From the NCBI GenBank assembly GCA_041879355.1, contig CP089922.1:3155081-3219080 (forward strand): a stretch of 64,000 bases of DNA, written 5' to 3'. This stretch comes from Cyanobacteria bacterium LVE1205-1. Its GTDB lineage: Bacteria; Cyanobacteriota; Cyanobacteriia; CAIUCS01. The notes beneath the pieces were generated by a model. The model was not told where the DNA came from. It saw only the letters and a list, made by a program, of their open reading frames with translations, and ran no database searches. The position numbers and the translations under genes are program-made. Positions 1-58,003 of this stretch are shown here, piece by piece (positions within the stretch are counted from its first letter, which is position 1; every line of letters begins with the position of its first letter).

Positions 1-2011
1 AACCGCGGTCGGCGAGTTTTGTAACCACAGCGGGATTGATATCAACACATACCATTTTTACCCCGGCGGGTGTCATATTGCCTACCCCAATGGAATGGAG
101 CATGGATGAGAGCATTAATATTAAATCAGACCCCTGTATTAACCGACTGTAATCAGCCTGGGCTTGTAATAAATCCATTTGGGTATCGGGTAGTGGACCG
201 TCATCACGAATAGAACCAGCTAAGGCGAAGGGAACTCCGCGGCAAATACATTCGTAAAAGATTCCACTGTTCAAGACCCCTTGTGCCACAGCCTGGCGAA
301 TACCACCCCACCGACGAATGGTATTGATGGCTTTGAGGTGGTGACGATGCCCGCCCCGCACAGAAACTCCCCGCTTCATATCCACCCCAAGGGATGTTCC
401 CATCATTGATTGTTCTATATCGTGAACCGCGATCGCATTCCCACCCAATAGGGCTTGCACATATCCGTCTCGAATTAACTGAGATAGGTGGAGACCACCG
501 CCAGTGTGAATCACCACCGGACCAGCCACCACTGCCACCTTACCACCGCGATCGCGGATATGGCGTAAATCCCAAGCTATTTGTTCTACCACCAATTCCA
601 CCCGCCGTTCACTCGACACACCAGCACCCATAAAACTAAATTCCTGGGTATGGCGTTGGTCTCGTGATTCGGGATTCCGCACGGAACGAATTCCTTCAAC
701 CCCCACAGCCACCTGTTCCCCTACAACTAAGTCCCGAAGTAGTTTGCATTCAGCAATAGAACCGGTGGGGGTTGAATGGACGACAATCGCTGCGTCCATT
801 CGTTGATTAGTCACCCGAACCCATTCACAATTGATGCGTATTTCTGTGGGATAAATGGTGGTTACATAGAAGTCTTCCGGAGCTACCCCCATTTGATTCA
901 CTACTGCCAAGTGAATATCACATACTTCACGAGTGGAAGGAATGGCTCCTAAACCAATTAATTGACTGAGGATTTCTTCCATCAAGTCATGGGATGGGGC
1001 AGAAACCTTCACCTCCGCCCTAGATGTGCTTTGTCGTTGCTCCCCCAACTCAAAGTTTAATACTTGAAAGCTCCCCCCCTTCCACAATTAAATCCAGCGC
1101 CCGATTGATTAGCCCGGAATCGAGTAAGTGCCCCTCTAGCAGAACTGTACGGTTTTCAATCATTGACTGTAACCCTAATTCCCGTCCCGTAGGTACAGGT
1201 TCTGTTACCCGTAAGGTTAAACATTTAGCGGCTCCCCCAGCCTTTAAAAATTCAGTTAGTGGGGTTTCCCACACCTCAAACCCTAATTCATTTAACTGTT
1301 GCGTTAAGTTGGTACTAGCACGATTCATAATGATAATCGAACCAAGATTAACTGAATTACAGGCAAATACATCCGCATCAGCTTCCGCAACAATGATTCG
1401 TTTTTCAACGGGTACTCGTAATTCAATTAAACGATTGGAGTAGGCATCAAATGCGGGGGATAATATAGTAGGTAGCCACTGCTGAGGGGACAAAAGCAGG
1501 TATCTAAATGATAAAACCGTTCATCTACCAACCGTAACGATAACACTTCAATATCCAGCCAATCTGATAGGTAGGCATGGGCATCTAATTCTGAACGAAA
1601 GCCATAACCAGCCCAGAGCCAACGCCCCTCCCTGTCGAACAGGGCATCCCCAGCCCCTTCAAAGGGGAGTTCCTTGGGTAGTTCGTATACCGTAAACCCA
1701 TTGGAGGCAAACCATGCCTTAAAGTAAGGTTCTTCCCCTTGCCGCTCCCGATGTAAAAATCGACTGAGTACCACGCGATCGCCCAACACTAAACCGGCAT
1801 TGGCGGTAAAAACCATATCGGGCCAACCCACTGCGGGGGTTACTAAATCAACAATTGCCCGTTTCTGAATTAAGTGATATAAACCTTGCCATTGCTCAAC
1901 AGCCCGGTCACGGGATGATTTGTGGATATTTCCCTCCATCCAGGGATTAATTACGTAGTCAACTTCGTAGTGATCCGGTGAACACATTAAAAAACGTAGG
2001 GATTCGGTCAT
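1..2011 (-). CDS. argZ: Arginine dihydrolase ArgZ/AgrE (amidinotransferase plus LOR/SDH-like C-terminal region); runs off the window; split by two apparent frameshifts (~1455, ~1075)
   Basis: Starts MTESLRFLMCSPDHYEVDYVINPWM; motifs PDMVFTANAG, FEGAGD, FYHLDTCF, EFLKAGGAAKCLTL, LEGHLLDSGL. After the C run at ~1073-1079 the frame continues GSFQVLNFELGEQRQSTS towards base 1. Confidence 0.9.
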
Positions 2012-2234
2012 GACTTCAGGAGGGAGAAATGGAAAAAGGGTAAACCTTATTTTATTATGCTGGGGCACTGATTAATGTCATGAATTACTTACAAACTATT
2101 GAACAGAACGGGAAAAAAGCCTAGTATTAATTTTGATGCAATAAATGAAATAACAGTTGTGAATTTATTTCACATGAAGGGTGGCATCCATGAATATTTC
2201 TCCCACAGTATGTACCCATCCCTGGGGGTATCTC

Positions 2235-2308
2235 CCTCCGTCGTCCGGGAAGATGCCATCGAATATGGCTTCATCGGCACGCTACGGGGACTGAAATATG
2301 GGTGTCGT
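2235..2308 (+). pseudogene. hsdR: 5' stub of a type I restriction enzyme R subunit (HsdR-like)
   Basis: PSVVREDAIEYGFIGTLRGLKY resembles, from memory, N-termini of HsdR proteins (..IEYGFIGxLxxLKYEYR..). An hsdM fragment lies on the same strand 1.3 kb downstream. Confidence 0.55.
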
Positions 2309-2333
2309 ATTGCACGCCCATCCCCGAATTATG

Positions 2334-3095
2334 TGGCGTTCCTTCAGAACGCAATTCTATCCGTGCTCCATACCTAGGGTTGCACCCTGGGCTGGTATGT
2401 AGCCGCCCCGTTGGGGCGATGGTTTGTCCCAACGGGACACCGCATATCAGCCCTGGGTGCAACCCTGGGAACCATGCCAGGCAAATCCCCGCGTTCTGAA
2501 GGAACGCTGCATATCCCCGAACGGGAACCCGCCCCCGATCCAACCCGACGTGGCGTTCCTTCAGAACCCATGTATGTTATCCTACGCATACCTAGGGCGT
2601 TCCCATACCCAGGGCGTTGCCCAGGGCTGGTATGCCCCGCCCCGTTGGGGCGATGGTTTGTCCCAACGGGACACCGCATATCAGCCCTGGGTGCAACCCT
2701 GGGAACCATGCCAGGCAAATCCCCGCGTTCTGAAGGAACGCTGCATATCCCCGAACGGGAACCCGCCCCCGATCCAACCCGACGTGGCGTTCCTTCAGAA
2801 CCCATGTATGTTATCCTACGCATACCCAGGGCGTTCCCATACCCAGGGCGTTGCCCAGGGCTGGTATGCCCCGCCCCGTTGGGGCGATGGTTTGTCCCAA
2901 CGGGACACCGCATATCAGCCCTGGGTGCAACCCTGGGAACCATGCCAGGCAAATCCCCGCGTTCTGAAGGAACGCCGCATATCCCCGAACGGGAACCCAC
3001 GCCCGATCCAACCCGACGTGGCGTTCCTTCAGAACCCATGTATGTTATCCTAGGCATACCCAGGGCTAGTATGCACGGCTCCGTTGGAGCCGAAA
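2334..3095. repeat. Tandem array of inverted REP-like doublets (REPIN/BIME-like), period 234 bp, about 3.3 units
   Basis: TGGCGTTCCTTCAGAAC recurs at 2334, 2551, 2785 and 3019. Each unit has a forward element (GCGTTCCTTCAGAAC..CCCAGGGCGTTGCCCAGGGCTGGTATG..CCCCGTTGGGGC) and its inverted partner (GTCCCAACGGGAC..CATATCAGCCCTGGGTGCAACCCTGGG..GTTCTGAAGGAACGC). Confidence 0.95.
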
Positions 3096-3113
3096 ACCAA
3101 AAATTGATTCCTC

Positions 3114-3566
3114 ATGCCACAATCACTCTCCAACATCCTCATTCATTTGATATGGAGCACCAAGGACCGCTATCCGTGGCTGTCGCCAGGCATGCGTGAG
3201 AAGACCCACGCCTTTCTCGCCGGGGCAGTACGGCACATGGATTGCGAGGCGTATCGCGTCGGCGGCATGGCGGATCATGTGCATCTGGCGGTGCGTCTTT
3301 CCCGCACTCTTTCCGTGGCAGACTTGGTGAAGGAAGTCAAAACCGCGTCCAGTAAATGCCTGAAAGAAGGAGGCTCGGAGTTCAACGGCTTCTACTGGCA
3401 ACAGGGCTACGGAGCATTCTCCGTGGGCATGAGTCAGAAGGACACCCTGCTCCATTACATCGACACCCAGGAGGAACACCACCGCACGGGGACGTTTCAG
3501 GAGGAATACCGTTACTTTCTCTCCAAATACGCAATCGATTATAACGAACGCTATGTGTGGGACTGA
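3114..3566 (+). mobile_element. tnpA: Y1 HUH tyrosine transposase (IS200-like TnpA / REP-associated RAYT), intact
   Basis: 150-aa ORF with IHLIWSTKDR, HUH motif DHVHL, FYWQQGYGAFSV and catalytic Tyr in YIDTQEEHH; REP-like palindromes on both sides. Confidence 0.92.
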
Positions 3567-3601
3567 CCAAAATGATGCGGACATGAGAGCCATTACCCCA
3601 A

Positions 3602-3642
3602 TCAGCCCCGAAGGGGCATCCGCATACCAGCCCAGAGCGTTC
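3602..3642 (-). repeat. Partial REP-like element downstream of the transposase
   Basis: GCCCCGAAGGGGC..GCATACCAGCCCAG matches the inverted array element; it is truncated at the hsdM junction. Confidence 0.7.
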
Positions 3643-3643
3643 G

Positions 3644-4283
3644 TTCTCCTACCGCTGGAAACCCACCGACGCGCTGGACGACGACGGGCGTTTCAAGAGC
3701 CACGGACTGGACCCCAAGTCCGCTGCCGACTTCGGCTTCCTGCTGCACGGCTTTCACTTCCTGAAGAACGAAGGCGTGATGTCCATCATCCTGGCTCCAC
3801 GGTGTACTGTTCCGGGGCGGTGCCGAGGAATATATCCGCGCCAATCCGCTCAAGGACGACCACATTGATACCGTCATTGGCCTGCCCGCCAATCTCTTCT
3901 ACTCCACCGGCATCCCGGTGTGCATCCTGCCGCTCAAGAAGTGCAAGAAGCCCGACGACGTGCTGTTCATCAATGCCGCCGAGCACTTCGAGAAAGGCAA
4001 ACAGCAAAACTAGCTCAAGCCCGAGCATATCGCCAAGATCATCGAGGCTTACCAAAACCGCACCGAGGAACCCCGATACTCCCGCCGGGTGGAGATGGTC
4101 GAGATCGAGAAGAACGATTTCAATCTGAACATCTCGCGCTACATCAGTACAGTGACCGCCGAGGAGGAGATTGATTTGACGGCAACACATACCGAGCTAA
4201 CGAAGATCCATAGCTCGATTCAAACGGCAACGACCAAACACAATGAGTTCTTGAAGGAGTTGGGTCTACCATTGTTGCCATGA
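3644..4283 (+). pseudogene. hsdM: C-terminal fragment of a type I R-M methyltransferase (HsdM)
   Basis: FSYRWKPTDALDDDGRF..KSAADFGFLLHG..; frameshift ~3796; HGVLFRGGAEE..DTVIGLPANLFYSTGIPVCIL..LFINA; in-frame TAG at 4011; NDFNLNISRYI..HNEFLKELGLPLLP*. Confidence 0.9.
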
Positions 4284-4617
4284 GGCGGGGAACCGGGGAC
4301 AGGATCAAAATACCACCTGCTGCCAAAAGTGCACGGCATTTTTGAGTATGAGTACCACAATTAACCAGAGCGGAATGAAGGGATTTATGGGGAGGGGGTA
4401 TAAACAGGTAATGAAATCAACCGAAAGAGAACCATCAATGACCATACTACACGAACATACACTTTATTTTTAAAAGAATGAACCCAATTAAAATCGCAAA
4501 CATCGGTAAACCAATCGGGGTATACTTTAAGTTAATGACATAAATTAAAGATTACTAAACACACATTTTAAGATAATTGACCTGTGGTGAGTTTTATATA
4601 TAAGAATCCCGGAGGGT

Positions 4618-5057
4618 GTGGTGGAACTGTCCTCAAAAAGTGAATATGCTCTACTAGCAATGGTTGAATTAGCGATCGCCTATCCTACAGGAGAACCATT
4701 ACAAATTCGTCAAATTGCTGCTCAGCAATCTATTCCTGATCGTTATCTGGAGCAACTATTGGCGAGCCTTCGTCGTTGTGGGTTGATTCGCAGTCAGAGG
4801 GGAGCGAAGGGGGGTATCTTCTAGTAAGAGACCCCAGCAACATCAACCTATTAGAGATTTTGAACTGTATTGAAGGGTTAGATAAACAACCTGTTGAAGA
4901 AACCCTAAATGCTAAAACCTTGGAAGGTGCCACCGTATATGACATCTGGCAAGAAGCGGGGCAAGCAGCTTTTGCAGTTCTTCATAGTTATAGTTTGCAG
5001 GATTTAGCTGAAAAATGTAAAGCTCGGAAACAATTGGACATTATGTACTACATTTAA
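4618..5057 (+). CDS. Rrf2 family transcriptional regulator (apparent frameshift at G run ~4809-4815)
   Basis: ELSSKSEYALLA..IRQIAAQQSIPDRYLEQLL..SQRGAKGG continues in the next frame as GYLLVRDP..ILNCIEG. Confidence 0.88.
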
Positions 5058-57259: not shown

Positions 57260-58003
57260 ATGTTAGACATTCGTAGTCTGGAAATTCGTATTGTGGTGGC
57301 TGTTATAGTCGGATTGGTGATGGGTGCGGTAGTAGCATACTTAGGGTTGCGCCGTAAGTTCAAGCAAGAAAAAGCAACGCTTCGTCAACAATTTCAACAG
57401 GTCACTGAAGAAAATGAACGGATTTTTCAAGACAGGCTCAAGTCTTCCATGACTGTTTTGCAGACGGAACATGAACAAGCACTACAGGCAATACAGAAAG
57501 CACCCCCAGCGTCCATTGATTCTTCTGGGATTGTTCATGATCAGCCATTGATGACTATTTCAGTCGATGGGCATCATGGGGAGTCGGCTGATGGGGCTCC
57601 CGTGGCAGGCAATCCTGTAGTTGAAGGAGCTTCTAAAATTCCTTCTTCCTTGGAGCAAGTTGAGGCGTGGGGCAATTCCGGGCTGGTGAGTGCTATCCCC
57701 GGTCTTAGCCGTTATGCATTGACCGCTGATCAAAAAACTCGTCAACAAGTAGCCGTCGCCTTGGGCAAAATTGCAAATCGAGCTGGGCTACGTTCAGAAG
57801 TACAGACATCCTTGGGTATTTTAGCAAAATTAAGCCGGGATCCAGAAATTGCCGTCCGTTGTGCAGCGGTGGAAGCGATCGCCCAAATTCCTTCATCACG
57901 GTCAATCCGTCTATTGAATCAAGCATTAAGAGATAGTGCAGGGGAAGTAGTACAAAACGCCAGTAAGGGGTTAACCCGGTTGAAAAATGTAAAACTAACC
58001 TGA
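57260..58003 (+). CDS. Membrane-anchored HEAT-repeat protein
   Basis: N-terminal TM, coiled coil, then repeats D..TRQQVAVALG, DPEIAVRCAAVEAIA, LRDSAGEVVQNA. Confidence 0.78.
   Translation: MLDIRSLEIRIVVAVIVGLVMGAVVAYLGLRRKFKQEKATLRQQFQQVTEENERIFQDRLKSSMTVLQTEHEQALQAIQKAPPASIDSSGIVHDQPLMTISVDGHHGESADGAPVAGNPVVEGASKIPSSLEQVEAWGNSGLVSAIPGLSRYALTADQKTRQQVAVALGKIANRAGLRSEVQTSLGILAKLSRDPEIAVRCAAVEAIAQIPSSRSIRLLNQALRDSAGEVVQNASKGLTRLKNVKLT

Follow-up and report, generated by a model that had tools for sequence, protein, structure and literature searches.

RAYTs (REP-associated tyrosine transposases, or TnpA-REP) are reportedly accompanied by repetitive extragenic palindromes (REPs), by REPINs, and by bacterial interspersed mosaic elements (BIMEs) in systems termed REPtrons, as is said to have been described by Nunvar in 2010, by Bertels and Rainey in 2011, and by Ton-Hoang in 2012. 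Another group of single-tyrosine (Y1) transposase-like proteins, TnpA-Y1 subclass 1.2, is placed near IS200 in the available passages of Quentin et al. 2018 (PMC6006769), where it appears without insertion sequence (IS) properties and with no REPs listed. Table 1 of that survey gives the subclass the motifs DH[IV]H, WQ, and Y---Q--HH and a median length of 148 amino acids (aa); the signature motifs of IS200 are given as W[TS] and Y[IV]ENQ (PMC6006769). Because the subclass is described without partner repeats or IS properties, the survey leaves its role open. Here, we describe a gene that its sequence assigns to subclass 1.2, together with a tandem array of hairpin repeats, in a 64-kb stretch (the window) of the 3.28-Mb genome of Cyanobacteria bacterium LVE1205-1. 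The gene (3114 to 3566, + strand) and its repeats lie in a foreign island at about 2174 to 4283, which is probably what remains of a type I restriction-modification (R-M) operon that was acquired horizontally and carried a Y1/REP cassette. The genome is a metagenome-type assembly (completeness, 93%; contamination, 2.3%). It was compared with 80 related loci (L numbers; source genomes have G numbers) that were picked by similarity to the window's Y1 gene, itself located in an R-M relic, and that come mainly from Verrucomicrobiota, Planctomycetota, and Acidobacteriota.

The open reading frame (ORF) of 150 aa scores 88.4 bits on Pfam Y1_Tnp and exceeds the cutoff of the NCBIfam IS200 equivalog NF033573 (69.3 bits; cutoff, 55) but not that of the NCBIfam model REP_Tyr_transpos, NF047646 (16.7 bits; cutoff, 80). 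Its tyrosine motif reads YIDTQ, the Y---NP motif of class 2 RAYTs is absent, and the subclass 1.2 motifs are all present: D54-H-V-H57 with the histidine pair H55-V-H57, W95-Q96, and Y115-I-D-T-Q119-E-E-H122-H123. These signature residues are invariant or at least 90% conserved among 30 homologs. A tree was calculated from 42 proteins (the window protein, 20 relatives, 2 cyanobacterial Y---Q--HH proteins, 14 IS200 proteins, and 5 Y---NP RAYTs), with all three reference groups drawn from cyanobacterial relatives; 3 of 23 relatives chosen for it were dropped for lack of an ungapped 150-aa match. The Y1 family and the Y---Q--HH proteins, both reference rows of which have long branches, formed a 23-row clade on a long stem (support, 96/100), with the 14 IS200 proteins outside it and the 5 RAYTs as the outgroup (99/98). 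The window gene was nested among Verrucomicrobiota and Planctomycetota sequences in a 7-row clade (100/100). An AlphaFold model built with 30 homologs (pLDDT 86.8; pTM 0.80) found its best PDB matches in the TnpA proteins of ISDra2, S. tokodaii, and IS608 (E about 4e-8), with the E. coli RAYT 4ER8 only at rank 30 (E 2.8e-4). These data indicate that the protein belongs to subclass 1.2, an IS200-side branch, and contradict the initial annotation, which had called it a RAYT. Class 2 RAYT identity was considered and rejected: the gene is flanked by inverted REPs, but its motif, its model score, and the lack of REP dispersal in its own genome do not fit. The annotation had also named, as grounds for giving up a RAYT-REP module, a protein that groups with IS200 and homologs that lack flanking repeats; the protein indeed falls on the IS200 side, but such repeats accompany its homologs (see below).

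A word-indexed search returned 4440 homologs at E ≤ 0.001, and the majority of the best 120 are exactly 150 aa long. The window protein found a single Y1 gene copy in its own genome, and five genomes of the Planctomycetes-Verrucomicrobia-Chlamydiae (PVC) group contain 2 to 9 paralogs each, at 30 to 87% identity to the query and none near-identical. No PADLOC family matched the protein at E ≤ 1. Separately, eight partial matches to PF01797 (Y1_Tnp), seven of them with in-frame stops and all missed by the window protein, were seen near 440012, 821806, 1061688, 1194629, 1486498, 1782958, 1932788, and 2551685 of the same genome; these short matches, all outside the window, resemble leftovers of a different lineage closer to IS200.

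The repeats around the gene share a core that consists of an 8-bp hairpin 1, a conserved single-stranded linker of about 12 nucleotides (nt) (CTGGTATG...), and a 5- to 6-bp hairpin 2. A covariance model of this core (R1), made from an alignment of five distinct copies, all from the window, was used to scan the window and the 80 loci (425 kb). R1 detected 198 copies at E ≤ 0.01, and the best 150 matches (143 distinct) were used for covariation and gene-distance counts. Over 14 pairs, 91.9% of cells in these 150 copies were paired compared to 79.2% in shuffled alignments, and double-change cells numbered 284 compared to 89.8 in shuffles (0 of 500 shuffles reached 284); slid-partner controls gave 29 to 53% pairing. 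The alignment was fitted on hairpin 2 and hence is biased toward it, with hairpin 1 outside the model's structure; hairpin 2 analyzed separately also shows covariation. At least one of the best 150 copies was present in 53 of the 80 related loci, so that REPs flank both the window gene and most sampled relatives, which does not match the description of subclass 1.2 as lacking REPs. The nearest copy typically lies 17 to 48 nt before the start codon and 29 to 43 nt past the stop codon. In 15 loci, including the window, a copy lies no more than 150 nt from the gene on each side; the polarity of the pair is (+,-) in 5, (+,+) in 5, (-,+) in 4, and (-,-) in 1, meaning that 6 are co-oriented and 9 inverted, and it varies by clade.

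These repeats are also found away from the gene in the genomes of relatives. In the Verrucomicrobiota genome G034, at least 68 BLAST matches fall on many contigs (40 of 97 candidates scored), and a REP 14-mer allowing one mismatch occurs 4 to 25 times per PVC genome compared to 0 to 3 times for the reversed control; a direct count of the 14-mer understates the number of REPs, the commonest PVC variant being one base off that of the window. In PVC hosts, REPs outnumber Y1 genes, and doublets and arrays without a gene occur. Tandem arrays with a period of at least 50 are present in 13 of the 80 related loci, mostly directly beside the Y1 gene. Array formation is thus a habit of this REP/Y1 family, comparable with BIME arrays.

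At the window itself, Tandem Repeats Finder reported one array only, at 2385 to 3066 (period 234; 2.9 copies; 97% matches; no indels). A 21-nt marker recurs at 2333, 2550, 2784, and 3018, and its spacings of 217, 234, and 234 nt agree with the one 217-bp unit, two 234-bp units, and partial unit that the initial annotation had counted. Unit 1 (2334 to 2549; 216 to 217 nt) is a REP doublet of hybrid composition: its opening ~70 nt resemble the distal doublet of locus L013, and from 2403 onward it is identical to unit 2. Unit 2 (2550 to 2783; 234 nt) is a palindromic REP doublet of ~190 nt followed by a 44-nt spacer, and unit 3 (2784 to 3017; 234 nt) departs from it at a few positions (2826, 2976, and 2999 to 3001). 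Partial unit 4 (3018 to 3097, + strand) consists of one REP next to the gene, with its end 17 nt upstream of the ATG. In a repeat search, the 234-nt copies at 2403 to 2636 and 2637 to 2870 were 100% identical, and that at 2871 to 3104 was 85% identical. Each full unit is an imperfect palindrome of ~190 nt, made of two REP halves in inverted orientation, plus a spacer of ~44 nt. The predicted fold of the unit as single-stranded DNA (ssDNA) is a long hairpin tipped by two smaller ones (-59.5 kcal/mol; z = -5.9; 0 of 200 shuffles equally stable). The array and this fold agree with the annotated pairs of inverted palindromic elements and with the description of the repeats as long, multihairpin, and locally amplified.

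R1 placed two-hairpin cores, supported by covariation, on the + strand at 2366 to 2424, 2601 to 2658, 2835 to 2892, and 3040 to 3097 (59.9 to 65.2 bits) and on the - strand at 2419 to 2476, 2653 to 2710, and 2887 to 2944 (63.6 bits). The partial element annotated after the gene was recovered as well: a core at 3598 to 3656 (- strand; 49.9 bits) starts 32 nt past the stop codon and is inverted relative to the gene-proximal upstream copy at 3040 to 3097, and the segment 3605 to 3635 is 81% complementary to 2387 to 2417. The outer part of this downstream core was removed by the deletion into hsdM described below. The locus thus has a BIME/REPIN-type organization of inverted REP doublets in a tandem array. 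BLAST found no REP copies beyond the locus, either in the window or in the rest of the 3.28-Mb genome, and the 8 matches of the covariance model in this genome all fall at this single locus, which extends to the entire assembly the absence first noted for the window. Promoter-like and terminator-like sites in 1900 to 4700 were at chance level (3 compared to 2.7 expected and 5 compared to 3.4 expected, respectively), and the three terminator-like sites on the + strand coincide with REP hairpin 2.

Comparison with Rfam suggests that the window REPs are related to the Acido-Lenti-1 motif (RF01687), the consensus and 2010 seed alignment of which follow the same hairpin-linker-hairpin plan. Rfam classes RF01687 as "Gene; sRNA" (small RNA) from Acidobacteria and Lentisphaerae; in Table 1 of Weinberg et al. 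2010 (PMC2864571), in the part available, the motif is graded "RNA? y," and in accessible portions of a 2026 preprint it is abundant and of unknown function. In a permissive Rfam scan, the three minus-strand copies of the window gave matches below the threshold (22.1 bits; E 0.037; model positions 1 to 46 of 46). Among the 80 related loci, 10 contain RF01687 at or above the gathering score, with 14 hits in total (L028, L031, L038, L042 twice, L059, L061, L080, L082 twice, L088 three times, and L090); in L082 and L088, hits lie on both sides of the Y1 gene. We also examined 60 Verrucomicrobiota genomes around G034 (RF01687 at E ≤ 0.001; gene at E ≤ 1e-20). RF01687 occurred in 7 and the gene in 4, with RF01687 in 4 of 4 genomes with the gene compared to 3 of 56 without it (Fisher's test, about 7e-5 by hand calculation, a value that overstates the association since kin are not independent). 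In G067 and G042, the motif lies 40 to 100 nt from the Y1 gene. An Acido-Lenti-1 run with 153-nt spacing extends over ~4 kb of G042 (C8:54658-58796; Verrucomicrobiota), far larger than the window array, and a Y1 gene (57440 to 57889) stands in the middle of this 153-bp-period array. A link between Acido-Lenti-1 and a Y1 gene is not mentioned in the text seen of Weinberg et al. 2010 (PMC2864571) or of the 2026 preprint. Other Rfam matches (mir-2765, mir-592, mir-1278, and archaeal SRP) scored far under gathering and were set aside as artefacts of long palindromes.

The genes beside the array and the Y1 gene are decayed, as the initial annotation had noted; what it missed is that they represent the opposite ends of a type I R-M operon. 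Such operons hold cargo genes, for example, prrC or rloC, between the hsd genes. The island comprises, in order, the start of hsdR, the REP array, the Y1 gene, one REP, and the last 40% of hsdM. The hsdR 5' remnant (2174 to 2310, + strand; ~45 codons; start coordinate approximate) forms the left end of the island. Residues encoded by 2237 to 2308 match an ORF of L016 (71% over 24 aa), the fragment matches the N terminus of an intact HsdR of 1047 aa in G021 (HSDR_N, ResIII, and EcoR124_C domains), and G021 DNA is 82% identical to 2234 to 2283. Pfam found no match on the fragment or on the L016 ORF, and the assignment therefore follows from the intact hsdR of G021. At the other end, an hsdM pseudogene (3644 to 4283, + strand) was recognized by tblastn against hsdM of L021, L052, and L070 (79 to 84% aa identity). 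It retains codons ~333 to 382 at 3644 to 3793 and, after a frameshift, codons ~384 to 536 from 3798, with an in-frame TAG at 4011 to 4013 and with the first ~332 codons gone. An intact type I R-M system is thus not present in the window, which has pieces of hsdR and hsdM and no hsdS.

Pfam annotation of 105 neighboring ORFs and local tblastn over all 80 loci found hsdR, hsdS, hsdM, or RhuM genes or fragments in 27 loci, always on the strand of Y1 and in the same order, hsdR - (Bro-N) - hsdS - Y1 - (RhuM) - hsdM. In all 27 of these loci, Y1 is at least 57% identical to the query, so that the R-M association appears to be a property of one clade rather than a family-wide rate. The Y1 gene ends 3 to 4 nt ahead of the hsdM reading frame in L042, L044, L047, and L052. 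An intact Y1 gene beside a decayed hsdM recurs in L022, L031, L032, L051, L057, and L085, in addition to the window. The related cyanobacterial operon of G021 reads hsdR - YhcG nuclease - hsdS - AAA_13 - hsdM and has neither Y1 nor REP; the cassette is therefore an optional insert. In this operon (L125; G021:C1:5012500-5024500), the YhcG/DUF1016 PDDEXK gene stands between hsdR and hsdS, and an rve DDE integrase gene lies just past hsdM. A RhuM family gene between Y1 and hsdM was seen among L022, L027, L028, L057, and L066, and a gene with a Bro-N domain precedes hsdS in L018, L028, and L052. The hsd operon family thus carries several alternative cargo genes. Restriction systems are not mentioned in the available passages and two supplement files of Quentin et al. 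2018 (PMC6006769), and no literature on such a Y1/RhuM arrangement in hsd operons was found among titles and abstracts.

The island is foreign to the surrounding genome and is truly present in this lineage. GC content is 0.574 in 2200 to 4283 compared to 0.442 in the remaining window. Of the HIP1 octamer, a cyanobacterial hallmark, the window has 29 copies (0.6 expected), none of them in the island. The proposal that a Y1/HUH gene with cognate hairpin repeats lies on horizontally acquired DNA is supported. Assembly support came from sequencing read runs. X1, the best-matching run (0.91 of sampled words) and possibly the source sample, yielded contigs that cross both island junctions without differences, including one that covers the left junction at 1900 to 2432 with 0 differences. 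Depth in X1 on 2403 to 2584 was 43.4 compared to 17 to 23 in the flanks, or about 2-fold, but short-read contigs cannot span the array. Stretches without coverage, such as those in X1 (2652 to 2745) and X6 (3028 to 3591), were left out of the evidence. Contigs from two other studies, X2 (6.8 kb) and X7 (7.7 and 22 kb), join the same host flanks to the island.

In X2 and X7, the island has the form seen in L013, with an hsdS remnant between two doublets. L013 is a 2459-bp contig with a Planctomycetia label as a metagenome-assembled genome (MAG). It is 93 to 96% identical to the window over 2786 to 4495 (96% over 2786 to 3703), continues into the AT-rich right flank to 4495, and contains a decayed hsdS piece (Pfam Methylase_S) between its distal and proximal REP doublets. 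L013 lacks 3704 to 3796, and the window lacks the hsdS piece. L013 is probably the cyanobacterial island, mis-binned owing to its GC content. At position 4011, the contigs of X2, X6, and X7 have C compared to T in the window. In the X2 and X7 contigs, the 113 nt of window 2145 to 2257 are replaced by 12 other letters, and the left island junction therefore differs between sister populations. Apparent X2/X7 joints of 2304 to the opposite strand and of 2419 to 2607 or 2722 come from repeats and a differently arranged relative. In the sister-genus genome G001, which was inspected for an empty site, the contigs end or depart from the window at each flank, without conserved synteny. To the right of the island, the next host gene, similar to a small transcription regulator, appears at 4618 to 5057 as two overlapping ORFs in different frames (4618 to 4824 and 4776 to 5057) and may be frameshifted.

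The initial annotation had read the intact transposase among decayed neighbors as a sign of recent arrival or selection. Compared to 24 closer relatives (L014 to L038), the window gene gave an omega of 0.08 to 0.19. Compared to L013, it differs at 7 of 453 nt, with 5 replacement and 2 silent changes and an omega of about 0.69. Residue 82, where conservation among 30 homologs reaches at least 90%, is Cys in the window gene compared to Trp in 25 of 25 close relatives (W82C), and residue 126 is Gly compared to Arg in 22 of 25; the L013 gene has unusual replacements of its own (N18 and T141). The assembly shows an open ORF, and no indel lies within the Y1 gene in X2 or X7. The gene is not uninterrupted in all copies, however: the one X1 contig over 3023 to 3670 is identical to the window except for the loss of 4 nt at 3486, a change that would put the last 26 codons, those following codon 124, out of frame. 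Since five of the seven changes are replacements, W82C is present, a deletion allele exists in X1, and no repeats are dispersed, these sequence comparisons point to relaxed constraint after a recent transfer rather than to maintenance by selection. Thus, the recent arrival suggested earlier fits if followed by decay, but the suggested selection is contradicted by the omega of about 0.69, W82C, and the X1 deletion.

We therefore regard it as probable that a type I R-M operon with a subclass 1.2 Y1/REP cassette entered this freshwater cyanobacterium horizontally and survives here as a relic and, as part of the same reading, that the module is inert or dying in this genome, with undispersed REPs, relaxed selection, and a frameshifted allele in circulation. 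Operons of this family run hsdR - (cargo) - hsdS - (cargo) - hsdM, and the slot before hsdM often holds a Y1/REP cassette. From a common island decaying independently in the window and L013 lineages, deletions with endpoints at REPs would have taken out hsdS and nearly the whole of hsdR, along with the first 60% of hsdM. The last hsdS remnant, still present in sister populations, would have been lost when two REP doublets recombined, and unequal exchange or slippage would then have raised one 234-bp doublet-plus-spacer unit to about three copies in BIME-like fashion. This order of deletion and duplication, the simplest history, is suggested by unit 1 being a hybrid of the two doublets of L013, by the missing hsdS piece in the window, and by the absence of 3704 to 3796 from L013. 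The closest Y1 relatives, in Verrucomicrobiota and Planctomycetota, suggest a donor from these phyla. If the enzyme acts like the TnpA of IS608 and ISDra2 and like E. coli TnpA-REP, it would bind ssDNA hairpins in native hosts and cut and rejoin beside them via an HUH-bound metal and Tyr115, an activity that would explain REP dispersal in those genomes. We lean slightly toward a broader proposal, namely, that Acido-Lenti-1 and its kin are not RNA genes but ssDNA REP substrates of subclass 1.2 enzymes, and that one cassette clade, a long-standing resident of the hsdS-hsdM slot, rides there between phyla, borrowing the mobility and addictive persistence of the operon; the window would then be an end state, in which the operon is gutted at REP boundaries, the cassette outlasts it for a short time, and doublets expand but do not disperse.

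Several points weigh against these interpretations. Few changes underlie the 5:2 ratio of replacement to silent differences, which departs significantly from neither neutrality nor moderate constraint. The array is spanned by no contig, and the unit number accordingly rests on the assembly. The window REPs stay below the gathering score of RF01687 (22.1 compared to 37 bits), and action of the cognate Y1 protein on REPs is argued from proximity, co-occurrence, and analogy. The mixed polarity of the flanking copies fits neither a strict IS200 nor a strict RAYT layout. Because the sample was chosen by similarity and the query lies in an R-M relic, 27 of 80 overstates the family-wide R-M link. Lastly, MAG labels near the query are unreliable for the donor, since some relatives with a Planctomycetia bin, above all L013, appear to be the same cyanobacterial island.

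If the module were instead a functional, selected RAYT-REP system in which the transposase had recently multiplied its own REPs into a tandem array here, the open ORF in the assembly and in X2 and X7, the complete set of catalytic motifs, and the strong purifying selection on the family (omega, 0.08 to 0.19) would be expected, and the 100% identity of units 1 and 2 over 234 nt does indicate a very recent amplification. However, a 234-bp duplication between near-identical palindromes is possible without a transposase, no REP occurs outside the locus in this genome, and the protein falls outside class 2 RAYTs. Given also W82C, G126, the replacement-rich divergence from L013, and the 4-nt deletion allele, we judge this explanation unlikely. 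A single-copy autonomous IS200/IS605-type IS inserted in the R-M operon would account for the NF033573 score above its cutoff, for the nearest solved folds being IS200 family transposases, and for hairpins that bracket the gene, and the G021 operon without the cassette means that the cassette was inserted or lost at some time. Yet the genomes examined contain no near-identical copies, the paralogs of the five PVC genomes being divergent; the motifs are WQ and Y---Q--HH instead of W[TS] and Y[IV]ENQ; the proteins form a separate clade on a long stem; tnpB is absent; and hairpin repeats that outnumber genes and form gene-less doublets and arrays behave as REPs. An autonomous IS is thus highly improbable.

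Covariation as strong as that seen here is expected from folded RNA as well as from folded ssDNA, and the classification of RF01687 by Rfam and by the Weinberg et al. 2010 table, as far as seen, would make the repeats small structured RNA genes, the array an sRNA cluster, and the Y1 gene incidental. However, the copies occupy either strand, form head-to-head doublets, and face either way relative to the neighboring gene, which is unexpected for a transcribed RNA gene, and they hug one protein family across 40 to 100% protein identity, while promoter- and terminator-like sites stay at chance level; we find this explanation quite unlikely. The constant position and strand of Y1 in the hsd operons of 27 of 80 loci, in a region common to RhuM, Bro-N, and AAA_13 genes, and the gap of only 3 to 4 nt to the hsdM frame in four loci could also mean that the protein is an accessory defence nuclease of the R-M operon and no mobilizer of repeats. 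Against this, PADLOC models had no match, 53 of the 80 loci lie away from R-M genes, the recurrence of an intact Y1 gene beside a decayed hsdM argues for retention independent of the operon, and the tight tie to dispersed REPs points to the repeats as the substrate, making a defence role very unlikely. Finally, the metagenome-type assembly, the Planctomycetia label of the closest database contig, and the array without a spanning contig raise the concern of a chimera or of a collapsed or expanded repeat, such that the island or the three-unit array would not exist in the genome. Junction-crossing X1 contigs without differences, the same host flanks joined to the island in contigs from two other studies, and the ~2-fold depth on the repeated segment in X1 make an artefact extremely improbable.

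In its own right, the R-M relic with its Y1/REP cassette is a decaying locus of modest interest and probably of no use to its host. Its value lies in a dated cross-phylum transfer for which sister populations keep intermediate stages of decay. Beyond the locus, if the link to Acido-Lenti-1 is true, an orphan motif gains a testable function as a nuclease substrate, and a third lineage of IS200-like enzymes would be tied to genome-wide hairpin repeats, beside IS200 with its ends and RAYTs with their REPs. That the cassette has repeatedly settled in type I R-M operons provides a handle on the horizontal spread of such modules. It is also a warning for annotators that calls of sRNAs and of "transposases" may mislead, as may the binning of GC-odd islands into MAGs. 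Among the papers listed since 2018, none beyond Quentin et al. 2018 appears to treat subclass 1.2. The initial annotation's view of an under-described system holds good to the extent that the literature searched, parts of which were available, contains no subclass 1.2 REPs, no overlap with Acido-Lenti-1, and no lodging in R-M operons. The locus supports three points that are new relative to that literature, namely, that subclass 1.2 has partner REPs, that these overlap Acido-Lenti-1, and that one cassette clade lives in type I R-M operons.

Compared with the systems described so far, the window protein resembles subclass 1.2, as characterized in the available parts of PMC6006769, in its length (150 aa compared to the median of 148), in DH[IV]H, WQ, Y---Q--HH, and a conserved C-terminal tail, and in low copy number, divergent paralogs, and the absence of IS-like behavior. 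Unlike the subclass as described there, a covarying two-hairpin repeat brackets the window gene and most sampled relatives and is dispersed in the relatives' genomes. With IS200/IS605 TnpA (IS608 and ISDra2; PDB 2VIC and 2XM3), which gave the best matches in sequence and structure, the protein shares its HUH/Y1 fold and catalytic residues and presumably the chemistry on single-stranded hairpin DNA; differences from it are the lack of identical copies and of tnpB, other motifs, a separate clade, and repeats that multiply without the gene. With RF01687, the repeats share the 8-bp hairpin, the ~12-nt linker, and the 5-bp hairpin, but the window copies remain under the gathering score, and Rfam files the motif as an sRNA. 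Like type I R-M cargo, the Y1 gene shares the strand of hsdS and hsdM and sits between them without being an hsd gene itself, a position occupied in sister operons by AAA_13 or RhuM; unlike such cargo, it brings its own repeats, outlives the operon, and has no indicated defence role. The closest parallel in organization is the REPtron, as represented by E. coli YafM (PDB 4ER8) in the accessible parts of Bertels 2017 (PMC5581495): a single-copy Y1 gene with its own flanking hairpin repeats, here inverted, together with REPIN-like inverted doublets, BIME-like tandem arrays, and repeats far in excess of genes in native hosts. The two differ in that the window protein is on the IS200 side, has no Y---NP, and scores 16.7 bits on the RAYT model; in that its REP consists of two hairpins and a conserved linker, whereas that of the REPtron is described as a GTAG foot and one hairpin; and in that flank polarity of the window-type REP varies between clades. 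Unlike group 2 and 3 RAYTs, for which mostly vertical inheritance is described in the text available, the window cassette moved horizontally with an R-M operon, and unlike class 2 RAYTs, its REPs are undispersed in its own genome but dispersed in PVC relatives.

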